64,000 nucleotides of DNA from a virus, in the IMG/VR virus record IMGVR_UViG_3300047472_000449; one strand, given 5' to 3'. Within the stretch, counting starts at the first letter, position 1, and every line of letters starts with the position of its first letter. The position numbers were made by a program, and so were the translations under genes. Positions 1 to 62,801 of this stretch are shown in pieces. The notes below the pieces were generated by a model. The model was not told where the DNA came from, searched no databases, and saw only the letters and a list, made by a program, of their open reading frames with translations.

Positions 1-39
1 AGTATATCGCAACCACCCACGATTGTCAATGTCACTGAC
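1..39 (-). promoter_or_regulatory. sigma70 promoter + palindromic operator (gene lies left of the window)
   Basis: TTGACA-17-TATACT; GTCAATGTCACTGAC 25-39. Confidence 0.8.
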
Positions 40-45
40 GGTCGA

Positions 46-825
46 TTAGGCCGAAGTGGCACTTCCCACGCCAGCAGCTGTCATCTGGAGTACTCGCTTT
101 GGAATGACCAGCTTTTTGCCGACAGTGAGTGGAATTTCGCCAGTTATCTCGCAACCAAACACCCGCTGGCCCTTGAATGTCGGGTTCCCCATGAACACAA
201 CATGCCCCAGAATTGCATTATGGGGCGCGAGAATGCAGAGCTGAAGACCATCATCATCAACAAACCGAGGCGGGTTCGATTTAGACGGGTATCGGCCTGT
301 TCTGCAATACTCAACGTAGGCGGGATCGAAGTTAGGGTGTGTTGCCGCAGTCCAGGCAGAGTACCCCATGTCATCCCAGAGAGTTTTTGAAATTGCAATT
401 TCATCGCCTTTTTTAAGGCCATGGAAGTGATGATAGAAGTGAGGGTCTACATCATCATCCAACGGATCGTCCCAGCGCTCATCAACGACCTTCCAGATGT
501 CACCTTCCATAAACAAGGTATGAAACGTAGCATCGGCCCCCTCTCGGTTATCCCCCTTGAGCGCGGAGATTACGCGACCAAGGTAATCTTCAAGGCGCTC
601 TTCCTTCCCCGATGGATTTGCACACAGAGTGTCGTGTTGTTCAAACTCTGCTGGGTCAGGGAGCACAAGATTGAGAGCATCCTTGAGCACCTCAAACTCT
701 GGAACATCTGGGAATTTGAGTCGAACGACGCCACTCTGGTCGTCAACGATGGCATAGGTGTACGCGGCTGGGTCGCAGTTAACGCTGACGCGCTGCCCGT
801 TCGTTGTGACGAAATTTGCAGGCAT
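46..825 (-). CDS. hypothetical protein (259 aa)
   Basis: Long ORF directly downstream of a consensus promoter (861-899). Confidence 0.75.
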   Translation of the reverse strand: MPANFVTTNGQRVSVNCDPAAYTYAIVDDQSGVVRLKFPDVPEFEVLKDALNLVLPDPAEFEQHDTLCANPSGKEERLEDYLGRVISALKGDNREGADATFHTLFMEGDIWKVVDERWDDPLDDDVDPHFYHHFHGLKKGDEIAISKTLWDDMGYSAWTAATHPNFDPAYVEYCRTGRYPSKSNPPRFVDDDGLQLCILAPHNAILGHVVFMGNPTFKGQRVFGCEITGEIPLTVGKKLVIPKRVLQMTAAGVGSATSA

Positions 826-860
826 GGCAATTCCCTTGGATGTGTTGTCGAATAGAATAA

Positions 861-899
861 AGTATAGCTATCATCAATACGAATGTCAATGTGAATGAC
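861..899 (-). promoter_or_regulatory. sigma70 promoter + operator
   Basis: TTGACA-17-TATACT; GTCAATGTGAATGAC 885-899. Confidence 0.85.
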
Positions 900-929
900 G
901 GTAATGCTAGCAGCTATCACACAAGCAAT

Positions 930-955
930 AAAAAGCCAGCGCAAGGCTGGCTTTT
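930..955. terminator. intrinsic terminator (bidirectional-type)
   Basis: AAAAAGCCAGC-GCAA-GGCTGGCTTTT. Confidence 0.75.
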
Positions 956-978
956 GTCAGGAGGCAACTCCCGGCCTG

Positions 979-1179
979 TCAGGCCTCGCCAGTCAACTCT
1001 GGGTAAGTGGCGTAGGTCGAGGCGCTGGACTCACCCGTTTTGTCGAGGATATCCGCCACAAAGCCTTCGTCCTCGGCTTTGATCTGGATGCTTCCAGGCT
1101 TGTCCTTGTGGGTGGCGTACAGGTACTGGCCGTCGTCACTCACCGATACTGTCCAGCCCTTCAGGTCGTTTTGACTCAT
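979..1179 (-). CDS. small acidic hypothetical protein (66 aa)
   Basis: ORF with RBS, followed by terminator 930-955. Confidence 0.7.
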   Translation of the reverse strand: MSQNDLKGWTVSVSDDGQYLYATHKDKPGSIQIKAEDEGFVADILDKTGESSASTYATYPELTGEA

Positions 1180-1243
1180 GTCTTGCTCCTCGATTGGATT
1201 CTTTTCCTGCGGGCCTCTGGAGGCCCGCCGACGCTGGGGGAAG

Positions 1244-1759
1244 TTACAGGGGAGTGAGGTCGCGAACCCTGACCACTTCCTTCAGGTTGGTGTAGTTGAC
1301 CAGCTCGACGCGGGCCAGCGCATCGCCTTGGCTGGGCATGTAGATCGAACGATCTTTAACGATTTCATCAAAAGAACGCCCAGCGTCCGCCATGGTTTGC
1401 AGGCGAGGCATTTTTTCCAGCGAAGGATAATCCTCAGATCTGCCGAGGAAGTAGCGGTAACCGTAAACCGTGTGAATCACAACCGTCCATTCACACGACT
1501 CGATGTCGTCGAACGTCGAAGCGGGGATATCCTGGACAAGCCGCTGGGCCTTTTCGAGCGTCAGCTCTGTGATGACCTTCCAGGGTTGAACTTGCTTGCG
1601 GTCAGACAAGCGAAACACCCGCCAATCGCGCTGATTGCCATCAAACTGCATGTGATGACTCAGGTGTTCCATCACGGCCACCTGCTGACCATTGAACAGG
1701 ACTTTGCAGGCCAGAGTGTTGGGTTTGGAGGTGGGCAGGTCTTCGAAGGTATACGGCAT
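1244..1759 (-). CDS. hypothetical protein (171 aa)
   Basis: GGAG RBS before ATG at 1759; promoter 1794-1832. Confidence 0.75.
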   Translation of the reverse strand: MPYTFEDLPTSKPNTLACKVLFNGQQVAVMEHLSHHMQFDGNQRDWRVFRLSDRKQVQPWKVITELTLEKAQRLVQDIPASTFDDIESCEWTVVIHTVYGYRYFLGRSEDYPSLEKMPRLQTMADAGRSFDEIVKDRSIYMPSQGDALARVELVNYTNLKEVVRVRDLTPL

Positions 1760-3529: not shown

Positions 3530-4219
3530 TCAGGCCACCTCAGCCTTTTTGGCGGCATCCAGCTGCGCGATATGGAACTTGATGGCGTTCAGTTGCAGGT
3601 GCAGCACCGACTTCATCAGCTCGTACAACGCGTTTTGTTCAGGGAACAGGCGCTTGGCTTTCTTGAGCATCGGAAAGTAGTACTTTTCAGTTTCTTCCAC
3701 GTACTCACGCAGTTTGGCTTCGCTGAACACGCCCAGCATGGTCGAGAGGTTGTGCAGGCGATCAATCAGCTTCACGATGGAGCAGATGATGCACAGCGCC
3801 ACTTCGTCGATGTATTCCTGCGTGTTCAGTTTCACGCCCCGGCGAATTTTGCTGGAGCGGATGACGTACTCGATCAGCTCAGCGAACTTTTGACGAATTT
3901 CGTCTTCCAGGTGCTGATTGTCTTCGTAGGTGTCATGCAACAACAGCGTACCGATGATCGTAGCGGCGTGCGTCATGTTGGGGGCCTGGGCCTGGGTCGG
4001 CGCAAAACGCATGTTGCGGATCTGGGTCAGCGCAAATCCTACCAGACTCAGCTGGTGGTAAAACTCTGGAGTTACACCGTCCTTGCGAAAGCCGGTGTGG
4101 ATCTCGCTGGCGTAATCGAGGGCGCGTACGCACGTCAGGTACGATTCATCGATCTGAGCCATGCCAAGCAGTTGAGCGCGGATGGTCAGTTTCAGTTTGT
4201 CGAACTCAGTGGTGTTCAT
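3530..4219 (-). CDS. stand-alone RelA/SpoT-type HD-domain hydrolase (small alarmone hydrolase/Mesh1-like)
   Basis: Motifs H-x-G-x-RKDG..P..H, LLHDTYED and VKLIDRLHNL; no synthetase domain. Confidence 0.85.
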   Translation of the reverse strand: MNTTEFDKLKLTIRAQLLGMAQIDESYLTCVRALDYASEIHTGFRKDGVTPEFYHQLSLVGFALTQIRNMRFAPTQAQAPNMTHAATIIGTLLLHDTYEDNQHLEDEIRQKFAELIEYVIRSSKIRRGVKLNTQEYIDEVALCIICSIVKLIDRLHNLSTMLGVFSEAKLREYVEETEKYYFPMLKKAKRLFPEQNALYELMKSVLHLQLNAIKFHIAQLDAAKKAEVA

Positions 4220-4243
4220 ACGCTTCCCCTTGTTTGAGCCTTC

Positions 4244-4272
4244 ATTCTAACCATTGTCAGCAATATTGTCAA
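4244..4272 (-). promoter_or_regulatory. sigma70 promoter, no second half-site
   Basis: TTGACA-17-TAGAAT. Confidence 0.7.
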
Positions 4273-4328
4273 TTCTATTCGTCAATAATAACACTGAAAC
4301 AAAATGACCGGCGTAGTTTTCAGCCAAT

Positions 4329-4357
4329 AAAAAACCCCGGCTTTCCGGGGTCTTTTA
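4329..4357. terminator. intrinsic terminator
   Basis: AAAAAACCCCGG-CTTT-CCGGGGTCTTTT. Confidence 0.75.
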
Positions 4358-4367
4358 TTATTCGTTG

Positions 4368-5984
4368 TTACATTTTGCAGAGTTGCCAGATGGTGTTTGC
4401 AGAAACCACGGCACCCCGGTAGTAGGTTGCACCACCATAAGTCATCTGTGTATCTTGCCCTTGTCTGGTGTAAACCACAGAGCCGTTCAAATAGACGATG
4501 GTGTGCATGTTGTGATCCATCAACATCTGATACGTCCACTGGGTATTACCGGCGACATATTGGCAGGTGCTTTTTGTTCCTGTTGCTTGCTGCGTCACGT
4601 ACTGATTGGCCAGAGTTTGCGTTTCTGTCCTGTACGGCACAGCAGGGTCAGGCACCCATCCGCCGTTGTAGGTGTACCCTGCTGCGCCACGTTGTTGGTT
4701 GATGTAGCAATAGGCCGCTTGTGTAAACACGGTTCCAGCATTCACGGTTGAAACATCTGGGCTCCACGCCGAACAGCTGTAATAGCCGCTGGAGTTTGCC
4801 CAAGCTGTGAAGTCCATCAGGTAGGTTCTGGTGGTGGGCTGGCTACCAAGTGTCTGGCTTTCAGCGACAGGCACACCCACATTGCGGATGGCACCTGTGT
4901 AGGTTTCAGACTCGCGATCCTGACGGGTGCGGCTCTGATTGACGGAGCAATAGGCTGTTTGATTGAACTGCGTAGCCGTTGTGTAAGCGGCTGGTGACGG
5001 CGAATAAGTGCCGCAGCCGTAAAGTCCTGACGAGTTGGCCCAGGCCGTATAAACCGGCGAGGTCGCGACCCATGTTTCCATCGTGCCGGTGGCATCCTGG
5101 CTATTGCCCTGATTGGTCAGTGTGCGGTTTTCATTAGCTACCCCCACCGACACAACCTGATTGGTCAGGTGGTCTTTGTACGATTCGGCGCGGGTGCGTG
5201 TCTGGTTCAATTGGCAGTCAGTGGCAGTCTGCGTGAACTTCAGTCCTTTGCCGACAGTTTCAACAGCGGGTGACCAGTTGGCGCATTGGTACGCCCCGCC
5301 TACCGCAGTCCAGTCGCCCAGTGTAACCGTGTAGGGTCGGGTGGCGGTCTGACTGTTCAGGGTCTGCTGTTCTGTTACTGATGCGCCATTGTTGCGAATT
5401 TCCGACGTGAATTTCTCCTGTTCGCGCTCCTGGCGCTGGCGCTCCTGATCGGTTTTACAGGTGCTGGATGTCTGAGTGAAATTGGTCGTTGCGGTGTATG
5501 TCGAAGGGTTTGGCGACCATGCTGTACAGCCGTACAGAGGGTTGGTGTCGATCCAGCTGGTATAGGTCGGTGCAATACCCAGCCAGTTTTCTAGAATACC
5601 GACTGCATCGCGTGTCGCTGACACGGTGATGGTGCGTTTAATGGTGTAGCGTGGCCCGTCTTTGACTTCTTGATTATTAATATTGTTGACACGGTAATTC
5701 TGGGCGCCCTTTTCCTGATTTTGTTGGCAGTCAGTGGCGGTTTGAATAAAGGACACGCCCTTGCCCTGAGAGGCAGTGGACGGTGACCAGTTTGAGCAAC
5801 CGTATTCGTCGCCAACATCCTCCCAATTGTCTTCATACTTGGTGATTCCCTTCCAGTTGGGCGGGACTTGTGAGGAAACTAGGGTGTAATTGTAGCGGAA
5901 ATTTCCCTGATGCTCTGTTTCTGCATAAGCGCCTGTGGCTGTAGTAGCCACGAGTAAGGCGAGTGCTAGGGTGATTCTTTTCAT
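4368..5984 (-). CDS. secreted repeat protein with 5 TSR-like W..C..WSP..TQT..C..QxRxR modules (538 aa), putative adhesin
   Basis: Sec signal peptide (AYA cleavage); repeats countable in the translation; paralogue of 6241-9411. Confidence 0.8.
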   Translation of the reverse strand: MKRITLALALLVATTATGAYAETEHQGNFRYNYTLVSSQVPPNWKGITKYEDNWEDVGDEYGCSNWSPSTASQGKGVSFIQTATDCQQNQEKGAQNYRVNNINNQEVKDGPRYTIKRTITVSATRDAVGILENWLGIAPTYTSWIDTNPLYGCTAWSPNPSTYTATTNFTQTSSTCKTDQERQRQEREQEKFTSEIRNNGASVTEQQTLNSQTATRPYTVTLGDWTAVGGAYQCANWSPAVETVGKGLKFTQTATDCQLNQTRTRAESYKDHLTNQVVSVGVANENRTLTNQGNSQDATGTMETWVATSPVYTAWANSSGLYGCGTYSPSPAAYTTATQFNQTAYCSVNQSRTRQDRESETYTGAIRNVGVPVAESQTLGSQPTTRTYLMDFTAWANSSGYYSCSAWSPDVSTVNAGTVFTQAAYCYINQQRGAAGYTYNGGWVPDPAVPYRTETQTLANQYVTQQATGTKSTCQYVAGNTQWTYQMLMDHNMHTIVYLNGSVVYTRQGQDTQMTYGGATYYRGAVVSANTIWQLCKM

Positions 5985-6240: not shown

Positions 6241-9200
6241 TTATCCTCTGCACACTTGGTAAAGGTTGGTGGATACCATGGCGCCTCGTTTGTAGACAAC
6301 ACCGTTGTAGGTGTATGAAGTGACTTGGTTGGCGAGCCCGGCCTGAAACTGAACGCCGTCCCACATAACCATGTTGAGCACGGTGACATGATCCATCATC
6401 TGCACAAAACCCCACTTGTTGTTTGCGTCATATCTGCACACAGTCGTTGGTCGAGTGCCGTAAGCCGTGTTGTAGATCGGTTGACCACTGTAGGCAACCG
6501 TTTCCGTTCTGTAAGGCACTGCCGGGTCAGGAACCCATCCGCCATTATAAATATAGCCCGCTGCACCACGCTGCTGATTCCGGTAGCAATAAGCGGTCTG
6601 GGTGAAGGCTACGCCTGAGTCGTAGGTGGATGGATCTGGGCTCCATCCGCTGCACGAATAGTAGTCGCCTGCCCACGCCCACGCGTTAAAGTCCATCAGG
6701 TACGTTCTGTAGGCCGGTTGACCTCCAATCGTTTGGCTTTCCGCTACCGGTGCGCCGACGTTGCGAATAGCACCCGTAGTGGTTTCATACTGACGATCCT
6801 GACGATTGCGGCTCTGGTTCACGTAGCAATAGGCCGTTTGAGTGAACTGCGTTGGTACGGTGTAGGCACTTGGATCGGGTGAATAGGCGCCACAGCTGTA
6901 CAGGCCCGAAGAGTTAGCCCAAGCGGTGTACGTTGGTGTGGTGGCTGCCCACGTTTCCTTGGTTCCAGTGGCTGCACGGGTACTCGACTGAGAGGCGATG
7001 ACGCGACCTTCAGATCTGTAGGTACTCTCTGGGTCTTGCAGGAAGTTACCATTCACCAGGATGTAACCTAGGCGTCCGCGCTGCTGGTTTCTGGAGCAGT
7101 TGGTGGCTGTCTGGGTGAATCCTGTTCCTACTGTGACCGTAGCTGGATCGGGTGACCAGTTGGTGCAGTTGTAGGCATCGCCGTTCCAAGCCCAGGCGTT
7201 GAAATCCTCCAGGTAGGTGCGGGTGTTGGTCTGACCTGCGACCGTTTGTGTCTCGACAACCGGAGAGCCACTGTTGCGAATGGCATTGGTGGTGGTTTCC
7301 GTTTCACGGTTCTGTTTACTGCGCGTTTGATCCGCAGTGCAATTGGTCGCAGTCTGAGTGAATTGGGTTCTCTCAGTGAAGCTGCTTGGCAACGGCGTCC
7401 AGTTCGAGCAGTTATACGGCGCTGCTACGTTGGCCCAAGCGGTGTAGCTCGGCGTGGTAGCAACCCATGTTTCCTTCACGCCAGTGGCGCCTTGGGTACT
7501 GGTTTGGCCGGTCAGTGTTTGCGCTTCGCCAGCCACCGTCACAGGTACGGTCGAACCGGTTTTGTGATCCACATAAGATTCAGCACGCGTGCGCGTTTGA
7601 TCCTGTTTGCAGTCGGTGGCGGTTTGAGTGAAAGCTTGACCCACAGTCACGGTGGTTGGCGAAGGTGACCAGTTCGAGCAGGCGTATTTAGCGCCGTTGT
7701 TCGTCCATGAGCCCAAGGTGACTGTGTAGGTGCGCGTGGCCGACTGAGCGGTCAGGGTTTGCGCTTCGCCCACAACTGAGCCCTTGTCACGGATGGCCAA
7801 GGTGGTGGTTTCCTGCTCGCGATCCTGGCGATTGCGCGTCTGATCGGTTTTGCAGTCGGTGGCGGTTTGAGTGAAAGAACCTGTCGCCGTTTTGCTGGAG
7901 CCTGCTGGTGACCAGTTGCTGCACGCGTACTGACCGTTGGTGGTTGTCCACGCGGTGTACGTTGGGGTGGTTGCCATCCAAGTTTCTTTGGTGCCAGTTG
8001 CGGTCTGGGTGCTGGTCTGATTGCTCAGCGTCTGGCTTTCAACCGTGTTGCCCGCCGCAACCACTGAACCGGTCTTATGATCGACATAGGACTCGGCGCG
8101 AGGGCGTTTTTGATCCTGTTTGCAGTCGGTAGCAGTCTGAGTAAAGCTCTGGCCAATGGTGACGGTAGCAGGTGCCGGTGACCAGTTCACACAAGCGTAT
8201 TTTGCGCCATTGTCCGCCCACGCGCCCAGGGTCACGGTGTAGCTGCGTGAAGCTGATTGACCGGTGAGGGTCTGTGCTTCTGCAACCGGAACGCCCTTGT
8301 TGCGGATCTCGCTGGTGTTCTGCTCCATTTCACGATCCTGACGCGTGCGCGCCTGATCGGTGGTGCAGTTGGTCGCGGTCTGTGTGAAGGTGCTAGTGCT
8401 GGTTTTAATCACCGGGTTCGGTGCCCAGTTGGTGCAAGCATTTTTCGCACTGGTATCGACCCAGGCGGTGTAGGTTGGCGTCGTGGCCATCCACTGCTCA
8501 AGCGTACCGGTCGATTCCTGACTGCTGGCCTGACTGGTCAGCGTGCGGTTCTCGTTGGGTTTTGCCACTTGAACAATCTGATTGGTCTGATGGTCTTTGA
8601 ACGACTCAGCGCGGGAGCGAGTTTGATCCAGTTTGCAGTCGGTAGCGTTCTGGGTGAACTTGATGCCTTTGCCGATGGTGGTCACGGCTGGCGACCAGTT
8701 GGTGCAGGCATAGGTTTCGCCCACCGCTGTCCAGCCACCCAAGGCGACCGAATACGGTCGAGTGGCCGTTTGACCTGTCTTGGTTTGCTGTTCGGTGATC
8801 GGCCCGCCACTGTCACGGATTTCCGACGTGAATTTCTCTTGTTCACGTTCCTGGCGCTGGCGCTCTTGGTCTGTTTTGCAGGTGGTGGAGGTTTGCGTGA
8901 AATTGCTTGTGGTGGTGAAGGTCGAAGGGTTCGGTGACCATGCCGTACAGCCGTACAGCGGGTTAGTGTCGATCCAACTGGTGTAGGTCGGCGTAATGCC
9001 TAGCCAGTTTTCCAGAATGCCAATGGCATCGCGTGTGGAGGAAACAGTGACGGTCTGTTTGATCGTATAGCGAGGCCCGTCTTTAACTTCCTCGTGAGTG
9101 ATGTTGTTGACGCTGTAATTCTGTGCGCCCTTTTCCTGATCCTGATGGCAGTCTGTCGCGGTTTGAATAAAAGCGACACCCTTGCCCTGTGTGGACGTTG

Positions 9201-9411
9201 AGGGTGACCAGTTTGAGCATCCGTATTTATCGCCCACATCCTCCCAGTTATCTTCATATTTTGTCGTCACCGTCCAGTTGGGCGGTAACTCCGAAGAGAC
9301 TAGTGTGTAATTGTAGCGCAGTTTGGAGGGTGATTCGATTGAAGCTGCTGCATGAACACCTGTGGCGGTGGTAGCCATAAGGAGTGCAAGGTGTAACGCG
9401 TGTTTCTTCAT
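6241..9411 (-). CDS. large secreted repeat protein with 11 TSR-like modules (1056 aa), putative adhesin
   Basis: Sec signal peptide; 11 C-x-x-(W/Y)-(S/T/A)-P repeats in alternating A/B types. Confidence 0.85.
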   Translation of the reverse strand: MKKHALHLALLMATTATGVHAAASIESPSKLRYNYTLVSSELPPNWTVTTKYEDNWEDVGDKYGCSNWSPSTSTQGKGVAFIQTATDCHQDQEKGAQNYSVNNITHEEVKDGPRYTIKQTVTVSSTRDAIGILENWLGITPTYTSWIDTNPLYGCTAWSPNPSTFTTTSNFTQTSTTCKTDQERQRQEREQEKFTSEIRDSGGPITEQQTKTGQTATRPYSVALGGWTAVGETYACTNWSPAVTTIGKGIKFTQNATDCKLDQTRSRAESFKDHQTNQIVQVAKPNENRTLTSQASSQESTGTLEQWMATTPTYTAWVDTSAKNACTNWAPNPVIKTSTSTFTQTATNCTTDQARTRQDREMEQNTSEIRNKGVPVAEAQTLTGQSASRSYTVTLGAWADNGAKYACVNWSPAPATVTIGQSFTQTATDCKQDQKRPRAESYVDHKTGSVVAAGNTVESQTLSNQTSTQTATGTKETWMATTPTYTAWTTTNGQYACSNWSPAGSSKTATGSFTQTATDCKTDQTRNRQDREQETTTLAIRDKGSVVGEAQTLTAQSATRTYTVTLGSWTNNGAKYACSNWSPSPTTVTVGQAFTQTATDCKQDQTRTRAESYVDHKTGSTVPVTVAGEAQTLTGQTSTQGATGVKETWVATTPSYTAWANVAAPYNCSNWTPLPSSFTERTQFTQTATNCTADQTRSKQNRETETTTNAIRNSGSPVVETQTVAGQTNTRTYLEDFNAWAWNGDAYNCTNWSPDPATVTVGTGFTQTATNCSRNQQRGRLGYILVNGNFLQDPESTYRSEGRVIASQSSTRAATGTKETWAATTPTYTAWANSSGLYSCGAYSPDPSAYTVPTQFTQTAYCYVNQSRNRQDRQYETTTGAIRNVGAPVAESQTIGGQPAYRTYLMDFNAWAWAGDYYSCSGWSPDPSTYDSGVAFTQTAYCYRNQQRGAAGYIYNGGWVPDPAVPYRTETVAYSGQPIYNTAYGTRPTTVCRYDANNKWGFVQMMDHVTVLNMVMWDGVQFQAGLANQVTSYTYNGVVYKRGAMVSTNLYQVCRG

Positions 9412-10314: not shown

Positions 10315-10353
10315 ATTATAGTGATACTCAGGTCTAATGTCAATACAAATGAC
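10315..10353 (-). promoter_or_regulatory. sigma70 promoter + operator
   Basis: TTGACA-17-TATAAT; GTCAATACAAATGAC 10339-10353. Confidence 0.85.
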
Positions 10354-10439: not shown

Positions 10440-10985
10440 TTAGCGCGTGGTGGTGGCGATGTTCGTCGAGCCGACGACTTCCTTGTACGCCACTTCAGTG
10501 CGCGACGGTGGCGAGCTTTGGGTCATGCCGCCGCACAGGGAACCGGCTTTTTCCAGTGCCTGCTCAGGGTGGCGGACGTAAGATTCGTAACGGCTCAGGC
10601 ATTCAGGCTTGGTGCCTGCCATGTAAAGGCGTTTCTGTTCCACATCACGGCTGCTGACGCCACGACAGATGAAGTAGAAGGTCTTGTCGCCCTTCTGCAC
10701 TGCGGCCACACTTGGGCTCTTGCCGTAGTTCGGCGCTTGACCCAGTACGGTGCAAGGTGCGGTTTCGGTGGTGAAGTCGTAGTCGGCCAGCGCTTTGGGC
10801 GAACCGTCAGCCTTGAAGTCCGATGGCTTGATCAGGGTGCCCAGGTAGATCTTGCCGTCTGCATTGACGGTTTGGGCGGTCGGAGCCGCATCGACGTATT
10901 GCGGGATGCCTTCGCGAGGGCCGGAGGCGCAGCCTGCGAGCAGAGAAACAGCCAGAGCAGCGAACAGAAGACAGGTACGTTTCAT
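10440..10985 (-). CDS. lipoprotein (181 aa), copy 2
   Basis: Lipobox LAG-C; tandem duplicate of 9727-10272. Confidence 0.85.
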   Translation of the reverse strand: MKRTCLLFAALAVSLLAGCASGPREGIPQYVDAAPTAQTVNADGKIYLGTLIKPSDFKADGSPKALADYDFTTETAPCTVLGQAPNYGKSPSVAAVQKGDKTFYFICRGVSSRDVEQKRLYMAGTKPECLSRYESYVRHPEQALEKAGSLCGGMTQSSPPSRTEVAYKEVVGSTNIATTTR

Positions 10986-11027: not shown

Positions 11028-11066
11028 AGTATAGCGATCTGCCATCACGCTGTCAATACCAGTGAC
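11028..11066 (-). promoter_or_regulatory. sigma70 promoter + operator
   Basis: TTGACA-17-TATACT; GTCAATACCAGTGAC 11052-11066. Confidence 0.85.
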
Positions 11067-12352: not shown

Positions 12353-12391
12353 ATTATATCGACCGACTGCTTATTTGTCAATCACAATTAC
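12353..12391 (-). promoter_or_regulatory. sigma70 promoter + variant operator
   Basis: TTGACA-17-TATAAT; GTCAATCACAATTAC. Confidence 0.75.
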
Positions 12392-12450: not shown

Positions 12451-12780
12451 TCAGTTGTACAGACCTTCATGGCCCGTCACGTACACGCCGGAGTATGTGT
12501 AATCGACGAAATCGCCCTCTTCGTCATCGTCATTCGACAGCGAGACGACTTCGCCGTTTTCGATGCGATAGCACTCGCTCAGGCCTTCGAAGCAGCCGCT
12601 GCCGACAACCTTGTCCATCACATCGTCGATGGTGGGGAACTCAGCCTTGAATTTCTCCCACGTGCCCGCTGCCCGGTAGGCGTAGGTGGCGTAATCATCC
12701 ACGGCAAGGATGCCGCACAGGATTTCATCGCTACCGCGAACCTTGAATTCGATCAGGCTGATGTCGAGATTGTTGGACAT
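12451..12780 (-). CDS. acidic small protein (109 aa), paralogue of 13608-13970
   Basis: Shares G(I)xAVDD..FKxxFPT..YxxENGxV with 13608; own promoter and terminator. Confidence 0.8.
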   Translation of the reverse strand: MSNNLDISLIEFKVRGSDEILCGILAVDDYATYAYRAAGTWEKFKAEFPTIDDVMDKVVGSGCFEGLSECYRIENGEVVSLSNDDDEEGDFVDYTYSGVYVTGHEGLYN

Positions 12781-12815: not shown

Positions 12816-12854
12816 ATTATACATAGCCACGCCAGCAATGTCAATACAAATGAC
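12816..12854 (-). promoter_or_regulatory. sigma70 promoter + operator
   Basis: TTGACA-17-TATAAT; GTCAATACAAATGAC 12840-12854. Confidence 0.85.
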
Positions 12855-13607: not shown

Positions 13608-13970
13608 TCAATTGGCAACGTCAGTTGCCGTATAGATTTCGCTGCCGGAAACGATGACTTCGGCGTAGGTATTGTTCGGGTCATCGCTCATGATGACTGC
13701 CCCGTTCTCAACGGTGTATTCACCGAACTCACCCATCCCGAACTCCACGTCTTTGAGAATCGACTGGAGGGTTGGGAACTGTTTTTTGAACGCTTCGATG
13801 CTGAGCCAGCCGGTGTTGACGTAGCAGCGGCCATTGTCATCCACCGCAACGATGCCGTATTGAACATCGTTTTTGCCGATGATTTTTTTCTCGATCAGGT
13901 CGATATGAAGTTCGCAGTCTGTGCGCTCATCATCGGTATCACCTTGTTCAAATTCGAGGTCGTCAAGCAT
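13608..13970 (-). CDS. acidic small protein (120 aa), paralogue of 12451-12780
   Basis: ATG at 13970 downstream of promoter 14008-14046. Confidence 0.75.
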   Translation of the reverse strand: MLDDLEFEQGDTDDERTDCELHIDLIEKKIIGKNDVQYGIVAVDDNGRCYVNTGWLSIEAFKKQFPTLQSILKDVEFGMGEFGEYTVENGAVIMSDDPNNTYAEVIVSGSEIYTATDVAN

Positions 13971-14007: not shown

Positions 14008-14046
14008 ATTATGAACACAAAATCCGATATTGTCAATATAAATGAC
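14008..14046 (-). promoter_or_regulatory. sigma70 promoter + operator
   Basis: TTGACA-17-CATAAT; GTCAATATAAATGAC 14032-14046. Confidence 0.8.
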
Positions 14047-14057: not shown

Positions 14058-14312
14058 TTAATGGCTTCCGTGCTCGCCTTCTTTTTTGGGTACAAAATAT
14101 TCGTCAGTCTCGAAATCGACGCGAGTGTTGATTGCGTTCAGGATGGCCTCTTCCAGGCTCTGACCCGTCGCGTCACACCAGCCAAAATCGCTCACATACC
14201 AGACCACACGATGCTGTTTGTAAGTGCCGTCCTTATTGAAATCGGTCTTGGCGCTGGCACCATTTTTACGGTCGTTGAGCCAGTCCCAGCACTGTTGCAT
14301 ATTCTCGCTCAT
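14058..14312 (-). CDS. hypothetical protein (84 aa)
   Basis: Downstream of promoter 14345-14383. Confidence 0.7.
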   Translation of the reverse strand: MSENMQQCWDWLNDRKNGASAKTDFNKDGTYKQHRVVWYVSDFGWCDATGQSLEEAILNAINTRVDFETDEYFVPKKEGEHGSH

Positions 14313-14344: not shown

Positions 14345-14383
14345 AGTATAAACAAAAACACCGCAAAAGTCAATGCTATTGAC
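14345..14383 (-). promoter_or_regulatory. sigma70 promoter + operator
   Basis: TTGACT-17-TATACT; GTCAATGCTATTGAC 14369-14383. Confidence 0.85.
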
Positions 14384-16100: not shown

Positions 16101-16583
16101 TCAGTTGGTGGAGAGCAGGCCGAGACCTTTCATGACGTTCAGCACTTCGCTTTCCGTCCACTTCGGCACGATGTTGTTGCCGCACAGGTTCTGCCACTCA
16201 TCGGCGGTCATCTTCTCGACAATGGGCAGCCAGACCGAGCGGTCGTCTTCACCGCAATGGGTGTAGACAAAAACGCCGTCATCCCATTCCATCGGTGCAT
16301 CATTCACCGCGAAGGCGATGGTTTCCGCCAGAATGAACAGACCGCCGCTCATCCAATCACACGGGATATCAGCGTGCTTGGCGTCCCACGAATCTGCGGG
16401 AAGTTCGTTTTGGTGGCGCACCTCGCCTTTACGCTTTGCTTGCAGCGAGTGCGAGTTCTGGTAAATCCCCTCGGCAATTTTGGCTTCCCAGAGAAACATC
16501 TGACGGGCAATGAAACCAGCGGTAATCGGATCTGCCGAGGTGAAAGTGTTTTTTGGGGTGGCAGCGACGGCGGCTTGGGTCAT
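16101..16583 (-). CDS. hypothetical protein (160 aa)
   Basis: GGAG RBS; promoter 16644-16682. Confidence 0.7.
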   Translation of the reverse strand: MTQAAVAATPKNTFTSADPITAGFIARQMFLWEAKIAEGIYQNSHSLQAKRKGEVRHQNELPADSWDAKHADIPCDWMSGGLFILAETIAFAVNDAPMEWDDGVFVYTHCGEDDRSVWLPIVEKMTADEWQNLCGNNIVPKWTESEVLNVMKGLGLLSTN

Positions 16584-16643: not shown

Positions 16644-16682
16644 ATAATACCCGAATAACGGCTATTTGTCAACAAAAATGAC
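16644..16682 (-). promoter_or_regulatory. sigma70 promoter + operator
   Basis: TTGACA-17-TATTAT; GTCAACAAAAATGAC 16668-16682. Confidence 0.8.
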
Positions 16683-17083: not shown

Positions 17084-17422
17084 TCAGGCAAAGCTGAGGT
17101 AGACCATTGTGGTGTCTTCGAAGACGGACTTCAGCATGTCGTTATAGATGCCTTCAGCCGTCTCGATAACGTCCAGTTGCATTTCACCGCCTTCAGGACG
17201 GTGAACGCGGCTGAAGGTCACGTCATACAGATCGGAATCGTTCAGGATGATCTCAACGCGGTTGATGTCGTTTTTAGCCGCCAGATCCGAAGGAAACTGA
17301 ATGCGCAGGCCCTTTTCGACGGCGATCAGTTGCGAGCCGGTGAACAGGCGCAGGACTTTAACGCCGCCCATTTGGGCTGCAATTTCGTTGGCGATCTGGG
17401 TGTTTTCGTTGGCTTGCGACAT
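17084..17422 (-). CDS. phage/plasmid-type conserved hypothetical protein (112 aa)
   Basis: IAAQMGG..N.VEI.L..SDLYDVTF..GIY.DML..VFE pattern; promoter 17451-17489. Confidence 0.75.
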   Translation of the reverse strand: MSQANENTQIANEIAAQMGGVKVLRLFTGSQLIAVEKGLRIQFPSDLAAKNDINRVEIILNDSDLYDVTFSRVHRPEGGEMQLDVIETAEGIYNDMLKSVFEDTTMVYLSFA

Positions 17423-17450: not shown

Positions 17451-17489
17451 ATTATAGGCAAGCGAGATCGCAATGTCAATAGTATTGAC
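17451..17489 (-). promoter_or_regulatory. sigma70 promoter + operator
   Basis: TTGACA-17-TATAAT; GTCAATAGTATTGAC 17475-17489. Confidence 0.85.
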
Positions 17490-18753: not shown

Positions 18754-18792
18754 ATTATATCAGGAGCCCGCTCAATTGTCAATACAGATGAC
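18754..18792 (-). promoter_or_regulatory. sigma70 promoter + operator
   Basis: TTGACA-17-TATAAT; GTCAATACAGATGAC 18778-18792. Confidence 0.85.
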
Positions 18793-44762: not shown

Positions 44763-44801
44763 GTCAACCGAGTTGACAATTTACTGATTGATGACTATAA
44801 T
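44763..44801 (+). promoter_or_regulatory. sigma70 promoter + operator
   Basis: GTCAACCGAGTTGAC; TTGACA-17-TATAAT. Confidence 0.85.
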
Positions 44802-47124: not shown

Positions 47125-47163
47125 AGTATAACGAATCTCACCTGTGCAGTCAATACAAATGAC
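47125..47163 (-). promoter_or_regulatory. sigma70 promoter + operator
   Basis: TTGACT-17-TATACT; GTCAATACAAATGAC 47149-47163. Confidence 0.85.
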
Positions 47164-47180: not shown

Positions 47181-47219
47181 GTCATTGTGATTGACAGTCG
47201 CTGCTCGTATCGTTATACT
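47181..47219 (+). promoter_or_regulatory. divergent sigma70 promoter + its own operator
   Basis: GTCATTGTGATTGAC; TTGACA-17-TATACT. Confidence 0.85.
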
Positions 47220-47239: not shown

Positions 47240-47572
47240 ATGCCTGACATGCCGATTCTGACCAAGCGTACGCTGTGCGCCGACTGCGGTGAATTCATGT
47301 CAACGGGTGACGCGTTTCGCTGGGTCAAGGTGCGAGTGGCCACCGGGCCGAGCGTCAAGAACGTAGGCCGGATCACTCACAAAGCGGCACACGCCGACCC
47401 GCATTGCCTGCTCAAAAGCGTTCGCCGTACTGAATTGCTTCGCGCTGCTCAAGGTAACGAAGACACACTGGCGCTTCTGGAGGCTCAAGGTGAGCCGGTG
47501 CCAGACATGCTCCGAGAGATGCTGACAAAAAACGCCGCCGATGCTCGGGCGCAAGCTGCTGAACTCAAGTAA
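47240..47572 (+). CDS. hypothetical protein (110 aa), CxxC...H...HC putative Zn-binding
   Basis: Promoter 47181-47219. Confidence 0.7.
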   Translation: MPDMPILTKRTLCADCGEFMSTGDAFRWVKVRVATGPSVKNVGRITHKAAHADPHCLLKSVRRTELLRAAQGNEDTLALLEAQGEPVPDMLREMLTKNAADARAQAAELK

Positions 47573-49495: not shown

Positions 49496-49534
49496 GTCAT
49501 TGTTATTGACATTTTGAGTATGCTTGAGTAAACT
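49496..49534 (+). promoter_or_regulatory. sigma70 promoter + operator
   Basis: GTCATTGTTATTGAC; TTGACA-17-TAAACT. Confidence 0.8.
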
Positions 49535-49564: not shown

Positions 49565-50350
49565 ATGGGTAACGTCATTCTCATGGTTGTTCGACACCGC
49601 GATCTGGATGCGGTCGAAAAACTCGACCTTCACGATATCCAGGGTGGTTTCATCCACAGCACCGATACACTGCCAAAGCGTTTCGATGGCGGCGAGCCTT
49701 GGAAAGATCGCTATTTCGACCACTATGGGCGCCCGGCGAACGTGATGCTGTCGCATTATTATCACTACTCTGGCTCCCCTCTGTTCTACCTTGATGACCA
49801 GATGATGGTGGACGCTGGCCACCTGAGCCGTGCGGACTACGCAGTGGAACCGACGCTTGATTTTGAGCGCTTCGTTCCTGGCGTTCGCAAAGCCTTGCGC
49901 CAATCCAAACACAGCGTTCTGGATCGCAAGGGTAAACTGTCGCGCCCTACCCGCTCCGGCGACAAGGTGAGCTTGTTCATGCTGTGGACGGACTGCATCG
50001 ACCGGGCAGAAAAGAACGAGCACACCATGACTGACGTGGCGCACTACTGCCGCACGGGTGAAGTGCGTTCCCGTACGTTCGGCAGCCTGAACCATGGCAT
50101 CAGTGCCATTGCCACGCTGAACGAGGGTGAGGCGGCGCTTGTTCGCCTGTACGACACTCAGGTTAATGTTCAGCGCCTGCCGCGCTTTGAGCTGGCTGTG
50201 ACGCCAGAGGAGTGCGCTCAGATCGCAGCCCTCTACACGGCTGAAGACTACGGCAAGGCATTTCGTTTGTACGATCTGGCCTTTGCTCGTGAAATCGCGG
50301 CTGCCCACGGCTATTTGGTTCGCGAAGTGGCGTCCAAACAGATCGCCTGA
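49565..50350 (+). CDS. hypothetical protein (261 aa)
   Basis: Promoter 49496-49534; terminator 50370-50402. Confidence 0.8.
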   Translation: MGNVILMVVRHRDLDAVEKLDLHDIQGGFIHSTDTLPKRFDGGEPWKDRYFDHYGRPANVMLSHYYHYSGSPLFYLDDQMMVDAGHLSRADYAVEPTLDFERFVPGVRKALRQSKHSVLDRKGKLSRPTRSGDKVSLFMLWTDCIDRAEKNEHTMTDVAHYCRTGEVRSRTFGSLNHGISAIATLNEGEAALVRLYDTQVNVQRLPRFELAVTPEECAQIAALYTAEDYGKAFRLYDLAFAREIAAAHGYLVREVASKQIA

Positions 50351-50402: not shown

Positions 50403-50439
50403 GTGTCCTTTAAAAGAGGATCGTGAGGACAGATAATAC

Positions 50440-50468
50440 TCGACAAATACGCGCATTGCGCGTATACT
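50440..50468 (+). promoter_or_regulatory. sigma70 promoter without operator
   Basis: TCGACA-17-TATACT. Confidence 0.6.
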
Positions 50469-50502: not shown

Positions 50503-50754
50503 ATGTGTAAAGAAGCCATCTGCATTTGCATCCCGGTATCCCAGGCACCGCATGGCTGGTTGCGCGTGAGCAAAGCGGCATTCTTCACGTGGGTGGGCGC
50601 TCAGGACATCGTGACTTCAATCGGTCGCAGCTACACCGAATACAACTTCCGTAACCAGCGGCCAGCCGGTCGCCGCTACGAGGATACTGGGGATTACTAC
50701 CTGCTGGCCGTGTACGCCCGCACTGTCGATCACATCCGCGACGTGGCGGCGTGA
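50503..50754 (+). CDS. hypothetical protein (83 aa)
   Basis: Promoter 50440-50468; GTGA overlap with the HTH gene. Confidence 0.65.
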   Translation: MCKEAICICIPVSQAPHGWLRVSKAAFFTWVGAQDIVTSIGRSYTEYNFRNQRPAGRRYEDTGDYYLLAVYARTVDHIRDVAA

Positions 50755-50933
50755 GTCAGTCGCCAAACCCCTCGCCTGCTGCCATCCGTGAGGCTCGCGA
50801 GCAGGCCGACCTCACGCAGACGGAGGCGGCTGCCCTGGTGCATACCACCTGCCGCACATGGCAGCAATGGGAGGCCGGTGATCGCAAGATGCACCCGGCC
50901 TTTTGGGAGTTGTTTCAGATAAAGGCCCGCTGA
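50751..50933 (+). CDS. small Xre/Cro-type HTH protein (60 aa), KorC-reminiscent
   Basis: PSPAAIREAREQADLTQTEAAALVHTTCRTWQQWEAGDRKMHPAFWELF. Confidence 0.8.
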   Translation: MSQSPNPSPAAIREAREQADLTQTEAAALVHTTCRTWQQWEAGDRKMHPAFWELFQIKAR

Positions 50934-52146: not shown

Positions 52147-52185
52147 ATAATACAGCTTATTTGCGTAAATGTCAATGCCATTTAT
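52147..52185 (-). promoter_or_regulatory. sigma70 promoter + degenerate operator
   Basis: TTGACA-17-TATTAT; GTCAATGCCATTTAT. Confidence 0.7.
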
Positions 52186-53504: not shown

Positions 53505-53543
53505 AGTATATCCAGGCGCAAGCATCATGTCAAACACATTGTC
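53505..53543 (-). promoter_or_regulatory. sigma70 promoter + variant operator
   Basis: TTGACA-17-TATACT; GTCAAACACATTGTC. Confidence 0.75.
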
Positions 53544-56928: not shown

Positions 56929-56957
56929 ATTCTAACGATAAGAGCCATTTCTGTCAA
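56929..56957 (-). promoter_or_regulatory. sigma70 promoter of ParB-like members C-B-A
   Basis: TTGACA-17-TAGAAT. Confidence 0.7.
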
Positions 56958-57049
56958 TGATAAAAACAATTATGGGTGGCAAATAAATAATTAGTTAAAA
57001 TCTATAGATCATCCATCGCGCCATCTGACGGCGCGATGTGTCGATGTCT

Positions 57050-59944: not shown

Positions 59945-60544
59945 TTACCTGCGATTCTTTTCGCGCCCGCTTTCGCTGATTCCATCAGGTTTGTTGGCAA
60001 AATGCAGCGTCTTAAAAAGTGCCACCCCTTGCGGGCTCAGCATCACCATCGGAGCGCTTTGAGACGGATCATCCCGAAAGGCTCTGGCTTCCCGTTCTGC
60101 GTTGGTCAGAAAGGCTTCAATGCGCCGGGTGAGCGGAGGAATGCTCTGCCCGGCGATCAGGGCCAGTTCTTCGTGCGCGGCTTTGGCCACACGGTCTGAC
60201 TCGTTGAGCAGCTGACAGATTTCGAGTTCGTATTCACGCAGCATTTTGACTTCGGCTGTCAGGGACTGAACCTTCTCGGTCAGATCCTCAATGGTCTTGG
60301 CCTGCCGATCTTCAGTGGTTGGCAGTGAGTGCAGCCCATCGGCTTTGCGCTTGCGGCTGTACCACTGCGTGACAAACGCGTGGGCCATGGTCTCATCGTC
60401 TGCCGAGAAGATCGGTTCGTGCCTATGCACGGTCAGCATCATCGACATCACATGACCGGCCTTGTCGAGGTAGGCCAGGGCGTCAGTGAGCTGTTGCTGG
60501 GTCTGCTCAAGCAGCAATTCGGTGGGTGTGCGTTCGGTCATCAT
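59945..60544 (-). CDS. coiled-coil hypothetical protein (199 aa)
   Basis: Heptad-rich segments; promoter 60585-60612. Confidence 0.7.
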   Translation of the reverse strand: MMTERTPTELLLEQTQQQLTDALAYLDKAGHVMSMMLTVHRHEPIFSADDETMAHAFVTQWYSRKRKADGLHSLPTTEDRQAKTIEDLTEKVQSLTAEVKMLREYELEICQLLNESDRVAKAAHEELALIAGQSIPPLTRRIEAFLTNAEREARAFRDDPSQSAPMVMLSPQGVALFKTLHFANKPDGISESGREKNRR

Positions 60545-60584: not shown

Positions 60585-60612
60585 ACTATACTGTGACTTG
60601 TGATTTTGTCAA
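60585..60612 (-). promoter_or_regulatory. sigma70 promoter
   Basis: TTGACA-16-TATAGT. Confidence 0.55.
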
Positions 60613-60649
60613 TTTCAATAATTATTTTGCACTTAATTGAGCCTGCGGT

Positions 60650-60681: not shown

Positions 60682-60864
60682 TTTCTGCTTTTTCACATAA
60701 TCGACAGGCCAGTAAATGCTGGTGATGGTGCCCGTTTTTTACTAGTTAGATACCTAGACCAAAATGTAAAGTTTCGAGGAAACCGCCAATGTTTACTGGG
60801 ATTTCAGGGCTTGCCAAGTCGATTTTTCATGCCTAGAGTTTGAAAAAATCACGGAGTCCAGCCC

Positions 60865-61470
60865 ATGGCCGCAGCAGTGCTAACGATGTCAGTCCACCCG
60901 ATCATTTCCCCGGAAGCGGTTGATGATCATGTCTACGCCCCTTCCAAGCTGGATCTGTCCGGTTTGGCTCAAACCATTGAGGATGTGTGCCGGGGTGGTA
61001 ACCCGCTGGCATCGGTCAGAATCGCGGACAGCTATCTGGATCTTGATGCAGTGGATGAACTTAAACACCGCATCGGCAACGTCCAGGCCGTTGAGGCCCT
61101 TGGTGGAATGTTGTTGGAGCGCGCCAGCGTGCGAGGAAAAAGCCGCAATGGCGTGATCACCGTCGCGGACGAGTGGAACCAGCATCTGAAGAAGGACGTG
61201 GAAGGCCCTCAGCTGGTGCCCTCGGTGTTTTTCATCCTGGTCAGGGCCAGCACCAGTCTGATGGTCGGCGATTGGCTGCATCAAGCTTTGGCGCGGTTTG
61301 ATTCCTTTTCCTACCCGCCCGGCATGCTCGAAGCCTTTACCGGTGGCAAGGCCAAAAGCCAACCGTCTGCCGGTCGTTTGCCGAGGGAGGTGGGAGACAA
61401 GCTGGAGGCGATGTTTGGCCTGCCATTTCAACATCACGCCAAGCTGAACGTGATCTGCCGCAAAAGCTGA
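60865..61470 (+). CDS. hypothetical protein (201 aa)
   Basis: GGAG RBS; terminator 61485-61515. Confidence 0.75.
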   Translation: MAAAVLTMSVHPIISPEAVDDHVYAPSKLDLSGLAQTIEDVCRGGNPLASVRIADSYLDLDAVDELKHRIGNVQAVEALGGMLLERASVRGKSRNGVITVADEWNQHLKKDVEGPQLVPSVFFILVRASTSLMVGDWLHQALARFDSFSYPPGMLEAFTGGKAKSQPSAGRLPREVGDKLEAMFGLPFQHHAKLNVICRKS

Positions 61471-61484
61471 ACCCTGGCCCAAAC

Positions 61485-61515
61485 AAAAAGCCCCGACTGG
61501 TTGGCCGGGGCTTTT
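61485..61515. terminator. bidirectional terminator
   Basis: AAAAAGCCCCG...CGGGGCTTTT. Confidence 0.75.
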
Positions 61516-61608
61516 GTGTTCGAACCTAGTCTCTTCACCGCTTCGTGAAGCGCGGGAGTGGAGGTTCCTAGGGCTGCCAGAGTATAGTAGCAATATGATG
61601 GCATTTAG

Positions 61609-62196
61609 TCAAGCAAAACGCCCTTCCATCTCCGCTTGAAGGCGACCGCGCATGTCGGTCTTGGCTTCTTCGCTCATTCGATTGAAGGCGTTGGCAGGCA
61701 CCAGATAGGTGAGCCATACGCCCCGGTGCTTGCCCAGGTAACCCTTGCGCTTGGCGGGATCGCCCATGGTCAGTTCTTGAATGGTCAGCGGGTGATTGCT
61801 GGCGCTGGTCAGGGTGAAGATAATCAGCTCTTCGGCTGGCGCTTCCGCCACCGGCTCTTCGACCTTCTTGGCCTTGGTCGCTTTGACCACAGGCGCTGGC
61901 GCATCCACAGGCTCTGCTGGCGCTAGAGCATTGGCCACTTCAACCACAGGGGCAACCTCTGCCGCCACCGCAACTTCCGGGGTCACTTCCGGGGTCACTT
62001 CCGGGGTCACTTCCGGGGTGACTTCCGGGGTGACTTCCGGGGTGACTTCCGGGGTTAGCTCAACCACAGGCTCGCTGACCGGCTCCGGTACAATGGCTGC
62101 AACCAATGCCACAGGCGCTGGCGCTGGCTCCTTGACCGGTTCGGGCTCCGGCTGGGAAAACAGGTCAAACAAATCAAACTGGCCGCTCTTGTTCAT
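61609..62196 (-). CDS. protein with Pro/Glu/Val-rich low-complexity linker and (PEVT)n repeat (195 aa)
   Basis: N-terminal QFDLFDLF, 12-bp tandem repeat, small C-terminal domain. Confidence 0.75.
   Translation of the reverse strand: MNKSGQFDLFDLFSQPEPEPVKEPAPAPVALVAAIVPEPVSEPVVELTPEVTPEVTPEVTPEVTPEVTPEVTPEVAVAAEVAPVVEVANALAPAEPVDAPAPVVKATKAKKVEEPVAEAPAEELIIFTLTSASNHPLTIQELTMGDPAKRKGYLGKHRGVWLTYLVPANAFNRMSEEAKTDMRGRLQAEMEGRFA
61973..62056. repeat. 12-bp coding tandem repeat x7 (ACTTCCGGGGT[C/G/T]) encoding PEVT
   Basis: Directly counted. Confidence 0.95.
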
Positions 62197-62363
62197 TGAA
62201 TCGAAGCCTTCAGTGTCGCCAACGTGGCCTCAGCCTCACGAATGTTATCGGCGTAATCTTGTATGTACTGCGGCTTGCAACGCATCATGTGCGCATGCAA
62301 CGCGGAGATATTACGCTGAAGGCGATCTATTTCCTTCGCGATGTCTTCGGGAGTGTTTGACAT
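62193..62363 (-). CDS. small coiled-coil protein (56 aa, MSNTPEDIAKEIDRLQRNI...)
   Basis: Manual translation; GGAG RBS; ATGA overlap with next gene. Confidence 0.6.
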   Translation of the reverse strand: MSNTPEDIAKEIDRLQRNISALHAHMMRCKPQYIQDYADNIREAEATLATLKASIQ

Positions 62364-62365
62364 GG

Positions 62366-62743
62366 TTATGTGTGGCTCCCTACTGGGCTGATAGTGATCT
62401 TCAGGATCTTGCTCAAGGGGCTCGGTTCTTTGACGGTTACAACAGGCTTGACCCAGGCCAGTGCCGAAGAGGCTTCATAGGTCAGGTCGTACGCCTGTTC
62501 TTCCTCGAACCCGGCCTTGATCACCCGGTGCGCCACATCAATGCCCGCTTCGTACGAGCCATGGTACTCGGTGCCCGCCACGTAGATGTCCTGCATGATC
62601 GCCAGTGTTTCTTGTTCACTGACGCCACGGTCGAGCAGCGTGCGCGCTGTGTCGGTAAACACCTTGGTGGAGTTGGTTCGGGTGAAGCCAGGACGAGCCA
62701 TGATCAGGTTCAACTGCTGACTGAAATCGTTGCTGAAAGACAT
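62366..62743 (-). CDS. hypothetical protein (~125 aa)
   Basis: Promoter 62773-62801; start uncertain. Confidence 0.65.
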   Translation of the reverse strand: MSFSNDFSQQLNLIMARPGFTRTNSTKVFTDTARTLLDRGVSEQETLAIMQDIYVAGTEYHGSYEAGIDVAHRVIKAGFEEEQAYDLTYEASSALAWVKPVVTVKEPSPLSKILKITISPVGSHT

Positions 62744-62772
62744 GCGGCGCACCTGATCTATGTTATGGCATT

Positions 62773-62801
62773 ATTATACCAATTCCACGCGCAACAGTCA
62801 A
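62773..62801 (-). promoter_or_regulatory. sigma70 promoter
   Basis: TTGACT-17-TATAAT. Confidence 0.7.

Follow-up and report, generated by a model that had tools for sequence, protein, structure and literature searches.

The closest known system to the one described here is that of ArdK, a KorA-family repressor of the IncW plasmid R388 and the IncN plasmid pKM101. In R388, ArdK represses five early-acting promoters through heptamer repeats, one copy of which is the -35 box; its half-site is ATTGACA, and the helix with which it recognizes DNA matches the one in sigma70 region 4 (PMC9723621). The protein also represses synthetic inverted repeats of this half-site (spacings of 0-4 were tested), and KorA forms a symmetric dimer on inverted repeats (PMC9723621). 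A study of R388 describes promoters that overshoot when the plasmid enters a new cell and their repressors have yet to accumulate (PMC3937220). Here, we analyze a 64,000-nucleotide stretch, referred to as the window, of the IMG/VR virus record IMGVR_UViG_3300047472_000449. The window lies at approximately 845-909 kb of a replicon of 1,136,430 bp, contig Ga0495643_0000001 of JGI metagenome 3300046522. Its strong promoters share a palindrome in which one arm is the -35 hexamer, and we propose, with a probability of roughly 60%, that this dyad is the operator of a single sequence-specific, symmetric dimeric repressor of nearly every strong promoter.

The motif GTCA-N7-TGAC has 22 exact occurrences in the window, compared with a mean of 1.15 (maximum 4) in dinucleotide-preserving shuffles of the same DNA. 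An earlier interpretation made from the letters alone (the sequence-only reading) had listed 22 start positions and estimated about one chance hit per 64 kb; our search recovered exactly the same 22, and the shuffles agree with the estimate. At every one of these sites, one arm is the -35 hexamer (TTGACA or TTGACT) and a -10 of the TAnnnT type lies exactly 17 bp away, again as that reading had described. A scan for TTGACA-16/17/18-TATAAT with at most two mismatches identified 43 near-consensus sigma70 promoters, close to the 40 or so previously claimed, where 4.9 (maximum 9) are expected from first-order Markov sequences of the same composition. Same-strand gene starts follow 24-93 nt past the -10 in 41/43 cases; of the remaining two, the promoter at 10315-10353 was missed only by start calling, and only that at 29274-29311 looks spurious. 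With an independent consensus scanner, eight perfect (12/12) promoters were found between 10 and 30 kb alone.

The upstream arm is present in some form at 35 of the 43 promoters. It is exact at 21, carries one mismatch at six (GTAA at four, GACA at two) and two mismatches at eight, and is absent from the other eight. The sequence-only reading had counted about eight further promoters with mismatched variants, an underestimate of the 14 we find. GTCA occupies -45 to -42 in 21/43 promoters (binomial P ~5e-37), and the exact arm accompanies 8/9 perfect promoters with a 17-bp spacer versus 13/34 others (P = 0.009). When the upstream arms are read in the opposite direction, no usable -10 is encountered (4-6 mismatches), and the arms are therefore not second promoters, as had been argued. 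The motif also continues past both ends of the window, with seven more exact sites in 8.2 kb to the right and four in 10 kb to the left, and for this reason the earlier claim about the size of the putative regulon stands. In viral-contig and species-genome collections, the operator-plus-promoter pattern gave scattered single matches among the matches listed, which are no measure of its frequency on host chromosomes.

The operator-bearing promoters of the window are listed below by coordinates and strand; L182 is a syntenic relative discussed later.

1-39, minus: exact-operator promoter; palindrome at 25-39, -10 at 1-6; the transcript exits the window to the left
861-899, minus: exact-operator promoter; first gene 46-825
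1794-1832, minus: exact-operator promoter; first gene 1244-1759
10315-10353, minus: perfect (12/12) promoter with exact operator; its lipoprotein-like gene ends at 9727
11028-11066, minus: exact-operator promoter; first gene 10440-10985
12816-12854, minus: perfect promoter with exact operator; first gene 12451-12780
14008-14046, minus: exact-operator promoter; first gene 13608-13970
14345-14383, minus: exact-operator promoter; first gene 14058-14300
16644-16682, minus: exact-operator promoter; first gene 16101-16583
17451-17489, minus: perfect promoter with fully symmetric operator; first gene 17084-17422
18754-18792, minus: perfect promoter with exact operator; orthologous site in L182 unchanged
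22182-22220, minus: perfect promoter with fully symmetric operator; conserved in L182
22960-22998, minus: exact-operator promoter; in L182 the arms are kept and 3/3 centre bases changed
25357-25395, minus: perfect promoter with exact operator; forms a divergent pair with 25419-25457
29930-29968, minus: perfect promoter with fully symmetric operator; first gene 29415-29885
38455-38493, minus: exact-operator promoter; gene 37489-38388
39556-39594, minus: promoter with fully symmetric operator; L182 retains the arms but has a different centre
44318-44356, plus: exact-operator promoter; first gene 44383-44736
44763-44801, plus: perfect promoter with exact operator; first gene 44861-45199
47125-47163, minus: exact-operator promoter, back to back with 47181-47219
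47181-47219, plus: exact-operator promoter; first gene 47249-47572
49496-49534, plus: exact-operator promoter; first gene 49565-50350
12353-12391, minus: perfect promoter with one-mismatch arm (GTAA type)
23882-23920, minus: promoter with one-mismatch arm (GTAA type); same variant in L182
31493-31531, minus: promoter with one-mismatch arm (GACA type); same variant in L182
37342-37380, minus: promoter with one-mismatch arm (GTAA type); same variant in L182
53102-53140, minus: promoter with one-mismatch arm (GTAA type)
53505-53543, minus: promoter with one-mismatch arm (GACA type)
25419-25457, plus: promoter with two-mismatch, T-rich arm; identical in L182
28015-28053, minus: promoter with two-mismatch arm; identical in L182
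40768-40805, minus: perfect promoter with 16-bp spacer and two-mismatch arm
41460-41498, minus: promoter of ssb (gene 40898-41404) with two-mismatch arm
52147-52185, minus: promoter with two-mismatch arm
56929-56967, minus: promoter with two-mismatch, T-rich arm
60585-60622, minus: promoter with 16-bp spacer and two-mismatch arm; first gene 59945-60544
62773-62811, minus: promoter with two-mismatch, T-rich arm

Alignment of the 38 promoters that have a 17-bp spacer delineates the dyad. In the upstream arm, the preferred bases are G-45 (33/38), T-44 (30/38), C-43 (23/38), A-42 (31/38), A or T at -41, and T-40 (31/38), followed by three positions, -39 to -37, that carry no information. On the -35 side, A-36 is found in 30/38 and TTGACA in 34/38 of this set, which was chosen for at most one mismatch in the -35. 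The 7-mer at -46 to -40 is the exact reverse complement of that at -36 to -30, producing a 7-3-7 dyad centred at -38 with inverted arms, 5 bp between hexamers, and half-site centres 11 bp, or one helical turn, apart. Conservation is much stronger in the promoter-side arm than in the upstream arm, as would be expected if the former is read by both sigma and a second protein. In promoters with 16- or 18-bp spacers, the position of the arm is fixed relative to the -35 and not to the -10. Beyond functional positions the 38 promoters carry almost no information, and so they are not recent copies of one cassette.

Several positions outside the hexamers are also common: T-16, G-14, C-1, A+1 and T+2, together with an A-rich start (typically CCATCRAAAC). 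These extra positions, between -16 and +8, are found in the relatives L179-L183 as well. This start is similar to the initial transcribed sequence found at strong phage promoters. We also considered, and discarded, an N4-type hairpin or single-strand promoter: sigma70 accounts for both the perfect -10 spaced at 17 bp and the conserved start context, whereas a hairpin of 6 bp/3 nt would cover only the -35.

Relatives of the element are found on short public assemblies, and comparison with them separates the parts of the promoter that are maintained from those that drift. They include L182, which is syntenic with the window at ~80% protein identity, L183 (65%), L179-L181 (54-58%), L185 and L186; L185-L187 are too short to show a promoter. 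Across ten orthologous promoters of the window and L182, the upstream arm has changed at 1/70 positions, the 3-bp centre at 9/30, the promoter spacer at 41/170 and the sequence further upstream at 41/333, while the -35 hexamer is unchanged (0/60) and the -10 hexamer differs at 2/60 (Fisher P = 3e-6 for arm versus spacer and 6e-5 for arm versus centre). The variant arms (GTAA, GACA and T-rich) are preserved as variants in L182. By this comparison of sequences, the upstream arm is under selection. An arm as conserved as the -35 and -10, between a centre and spacer that drift, bears the marks of a protein-binding site with two half-sites and an uncontacted centre.

Every relative whose promoter region is intact has the arm-plus-promoter design, including L180, L181 and L183 at 54-65% protein identity. 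For the gene at 37489-38388, the L180 and L181 orthologues (53-55% identity) keep an arm-bearing promoter; the L179 orthologue (58%) is cut at the -35, and the design appears at other L179 promoters. A separate observation concerns gene order: on the 3.8-kb L180 contig, homologues of the window genes 37489-38388, 20292-20591 and 3530-4219 stand side by side. The relatives are thus mosaics in which gene order is shuffled and each unit retains a promoter-operator of its own. The megaplasmid pMPPla107 contains only a handful of coding-type matches to the motif and three consensus promoters in 42 kb; lacking both the motif and the promoter density, it indicates that the design is not a general megaplasmid trait. 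Protein-based locus searches of JGI metagenomes and IMG/VR with the 299-aa protein gave no matches.

The motif is established, as are its dyad symmetry and position on the promoter, the selection that conserves it and its occurrence in diverged relatives; from these we infer that a protein binds this site, that it represses, that it is a single factor encoded by the element, and that its absence on entry into a cell would give a burst of expression. In the mechanism we favor, a symmetric dimer would bind the 15-17-bp dyad through arms at -46 to -40 and -36 to -30, leaving the centre at -39 to -37 free. Because the half-site coincides base for base with the contact of sigma70 region 4, occlusion, and thus repression, is the natural reading: the promoter-side half-site is the -35 hexamer, and the bound protein and region 4 would be mutually exclusive. 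Such a repressor could hold hundreds of consensus-strength promoters of the 1.14-Mb element silent together, with the degenerate arms (GTAA, GACA and T-rich) setting graded affinities. The few arm-less promoters serve genes for predicted DNA-binding proteins of the window, whose expression would continue in the silenced state, and repression may be released when the element enters a new cell. More tentatively, and at rather less than even odds, we suggest that one mimic of sigma70 region 4 gates several hundred promoters as a whole-genome on/off latch, quiet in an established host and firing when the repressor is absent or inactivated. If so, it would be, to our knowledge, the largest single-operator regulon on any mobile element.

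Several points weigh against this proposal. Among the 119 window proteins, no match to the KorA/ArdK family (PF16509) was detected at E ≤ 0.01. The sign of regulation is deduced entirely from geometry. The spacing of the half-sites is unlike that of ArdK. Finally, an arm that in some form accompanies nearly all strong promoters would also fit an intrinsic promoter element. The sequence-only reading had posited a single repressor occluding RNA polymerase; the dyad shared on the -35 at most promoters, the conserved arm and the ArdK precedent agree with it, and the lack of a KorA/ArdK-family gene in the window does not.

Among alternative explanations, the one that fares best, though we regard it as unlikely, is that the dyad is the temporal switch operator of a phage-like giant element, in which an element-encoded protein shuts off or re-times early promoters served by host RNA polymerase in a lytic-type program, as opposed to silencing a resident plasmid. 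Dense, short transcription units of ORFans behind consensus-strength promoters do resemble the early regions of large phages, and window proteins match ~40 PHROG families, mostly of unknown function. However, the large 1056-aa protein of the window has matches on megaplasmids of Pseudomonas and Vibrio but in no phage record, antitoxin-like and ssb genes are present, and the window showed neither virion genes nor one for a phage RNA polymerase. At 1,136,430 bp, the replicon is also far above any phage genome known to us.

Less probable again is that RNA polymerase itself reads the arm as an intrinsic promoter element raising or tuning strength, in which case there would be no separate regulator; the reading could be done by the alpha-CTD, by sigma through a second contact, or by a sigma-like factor specific to the element. 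The occurrence of the arm in some form at 35/43 promoters, and not at a subset, is what this would predict, and the other conserved non-canonical positions (T-16, G-14, C-1, A+1 and T+2) point to family-wide selection on the whole promoter architecture. Nevertheless, the arm contains G and C and is an exact mirror of the -35 heptamer across a free centre, the signature of a two-fold symmetric dimer, and it is this exact, G/C-containing dyad that renders an intrinsic element unlikely; UP elements are A/T tracts without dyad symmetry. Moreover, promoters with a perfect -35 and -10 need no help, and those without an arm are equally near consensus.

We give still less credence to a class II-like activator or co-activator that would bind the palindrome over the -35, such that genes fire only with the factor. 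The dyad is centred at -38, and class II activators of the CRP/FNR type do use dyad sites that overlap the -35 region, but the core promoters here are already at consensus, which makes activation unlikely: TTGACA is present in 34/38 promoters with a 17-bp spacer, alongside a near-consensus -10, and activated promoters normally lack a good -35. The half-site also comprises the bases read by sigma region 4, so co-occupancy is improbable. Common descent of copied cassettes whose arm has no present function is barely credible, for although repeated promoter cassettes exist in plasmids, such as the CUP elements of pKM101, the 38 aligned promoters share almost nothing outside functional positions and the arm is kept between relatives as flank, centre and spacer diverge, which already contradicts it.

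Turning to which protein could serve as the single dimeric repressor we favor, each of the three predicted DNA-binding genes of the window stands behind an arm-less promoter with repeats of another kind. These and the remaining arm-less promoters are the following.

28763-28817, minus: arm-less promoter of the winged-helix gene; four tandem 8-bp half-sites at 28786-28817, the last being the -35
28126-28725, minus: winged-helix gene, 199 aa, BldC/Xis/MerR-like; the only candidate reader of the half-site in the window
20830-20868, minus: arm-less promoter of an operon with an HTH_3 gene (20292-20591) plus one Phd-like gene; spacer contains a private 7-3-7 palindrome
50430-50468, plus: arm-less promoter of a second operon with an HTH_3 gene (50751-50933); own palindrome over the spacer and -10
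33702-33765, no single strand: divergent promoter pair; 7 bp, instead of 5, between the back-to-back -35 boxes, without operator geometry
4244-4282, minus: arm-less near-consensus promoter; HD-domain gene 3530-4219
40136-40173, minus: arm-less promoter with 16-bp spacer; first gene 39609-40085

Both HTH_3 genes belong to operons whose private palindromes differ from the global operator. The private palindrome at 20830-20868 has the same 7-3-7 geometry as the global one and is conserved in two relatives (L182:18022 and L180:2023). The divergent pair at 33702-33765 is conserved in L182 and represents a real double promoter, in contrast to the 5-bp operator geometry.

The winged-helix protein merits closer consideration. 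With 35 homologues its structure is modeled at a pLDDT of 90, compared with an unusable pLDDT of 50 from five sequences. The top Foldseek matches of the model are Rv2175c, BldC-DNA and Xis, all weaker than E = 0.001, and its predicted central winged helix superposes on BldC-DNA complexes at 1.4 Å over ~42 residues; sequence searches of the PDB gave no matches. HTH_17 and Xre/MbcA/ParS antitoxin domains occur in some relatives of the protein. On four direct repeats BldC assembles into a head-to-tail tetramer (PMC5859096); the gene at 28126-28725, with a predicted MerR-like winged helix, has four tandem repeats in its own promoter. Its product differs from BldC in its length of 199 residues, with extra N- and C-terminal domains, and the repeats have a period of 8 bp rather than 9 and another sequence.

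L182, L186 and L183 all have the four-repeat array ahead of the gene, and the 4 x 8-bp arrangement is found before the gene in five contigs in all, down to 40% protein identity. In L183, this is the only gene in common with the window. However, the 40%-identical homologue on L223 has both gene and array on a 5.8-kb contig without regulon promoters, and three IMG/VR homologues have neither arrays nor the motif. We have therefore downgraded the winged-helix gene as a master repressor; a role as the global factor is a doubtful, putative assignment, and the protein is more probably an autoregulator complete in itself, sharing the half-site word by coincidence. Separately, the 8-bp unit GGTTGACA, under a looser repeat pattern, forms tandem arrays of 24-120 bp on 33 metagenome contigs (window 28786-28817, L223:3517-3548 and L195-L227). 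These contigs range in GC content from 33% to 73%, and all but one are without a detectable winged-helix homologue. The GGTTGACA array is a widespread short-repeat array.

Another candidate was found outside the window. L183 encodes, at 4145-4369, a 74-aa protein of the KorA/TrfB family PF16509 in a stretch of apparently different composition. We dropped it as the repressor: the family is widespread in Pseudomonas plasmids and ICEs (integrative conjugative elements), and none of 101 listed homologues was traced to the replicon. The label of one NCBI copy of this family gives its origin as a Sulfuriferula metagenome-assembled genome (MAG), so the element may have relatives outside Pseudomonas.

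By heuristic calls, 119 genes are predicted, or ~2.8 per promoter (43 promoters); most of their products have no Pfam match, and the element is mostly ORFan. Genes with a family match include ssb, LemA/DUF3137, GNAT, an HD-domain protein, a Phd-like antitoxin and the two HTH_3 genes. The only large window protein with relatives is that of 1056 aa, which shares 45% identity with a homologue on pMPPla107, a 972-kb Pseudomonas megaplasmid; this match set the element in the neighbourhood of the Pseudomonas megaplasmids. Its homologues, all annotated as hypothetical, occur in pMPPla107, nine Vibrio megaplasmids and ~90 Pseudomonas plasmids. Together with a 538-aa protein (4368-5984 and 6241-9411 for the 538-aa and 1056-aa proteins, respectively, both minus strand), it contains several copies of a Cys-bearing repeat, C..WSP...G..FTQTA.C..NQ. 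The ssb gene (40898-41404, minus strand) is full length, with an acidic DDIPF tail, and its promoter has a degenerate arm. No oriT, relaxase or type IV secretion system (T4SS) genes were found in the window, Rfam and tRNA scans of it gave no matches, and plasmid and phage collections contained no close DNA relatives.

Giant plasmid-like elements of ~1 Mb consist mostly of unknown genes, and the cost they impose on their hosts is an open question for megaplasmids of the pMPPla107 type. If the proposed repressor exists, a single operator in nearly every promoter would offer a simple answer, with one factor silencing the whole element. It would also provide a practical handle, since one protein or one 17-bp decoy could switch on hundreds of uncharacterized genes together, and the element itself supplies a natural set of graded operator variants. 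The design would extend the ArdK principle, in which the repressor reads the bases of sigma, from five promoters to a genome-scale architecture.

Several known systems share parts of this arrangement. Dispersed repressor sites in temperate phages (P1 C1 operators, mycobacteriophage L5 stoperators and the conserved inverted repeats of phiC31) number ~15-30 per genome; as proposed here, one repressor governs a whole mobile genome, but the numbers are several-fold lower than in this element. The P1 and L5 sites are asymmetric, those of L5 act inside transcription units, and none of the phage sites mirrors the -35 box. Unlike the operators of the immunity repressors P1 C1 and L5 gp71, the site described here is dyad-symmetric, and the HTH_3 genes of the window are associated with different, private palindromes. 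The KorA/KorB circuit of the IncP plasmids RK2/RP4 provides a second likeness, with plasmid-encoded dimeric repressors whose palindromic operators recur across many operons; KorB sites of class I are found immediately upstream of the -35. However, the palindrome of KorB, a ParB-family protein, measures 13 bp and that of KorA 12 bp, IncP KorA sits on the -10, the operators number only 7-12, their sequences are unlike the one here, and no ParB- or KorA-type Pfam match, as such a circuit would call for, was found in the window.

ArdK comes nearest. The sequence-only reading had invoked it as an analogue, and the analogy holds for the heptamer half-site containing the -35 (A-36 in 30/38 and TTGACA in 34/38 promoters here) and fails for the layout. 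Natural ArdK operators are direct repeats 10 bp apart, with 3-6 bp between arms, whereas the arms of this element are inverted with 5 bp between hexamers, an inverted spacing outside the 0-4 range tested for ArdK. The ssb gene, the most strongly ArdK-repressed gene of R388, is here located behind a degenerate arm. Scale differs as well: ArdK acts at five promoters of a 34-kb plasmid, whereas the 64 kb examined here, part of a 1.14-Mb element, contain 22 exact sites and 14 degenerate ones. The earlier statement that no regulon of this size with this operator was known is accordingly correct for the arrangement and scale, which are without precedent, and too broad for the half-site on the -35, which is known from ArdK. 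By analogy with that system, what would be new here is the inverted geometry and the far larger scale, built on a repressor-on--35 logic that is already known.

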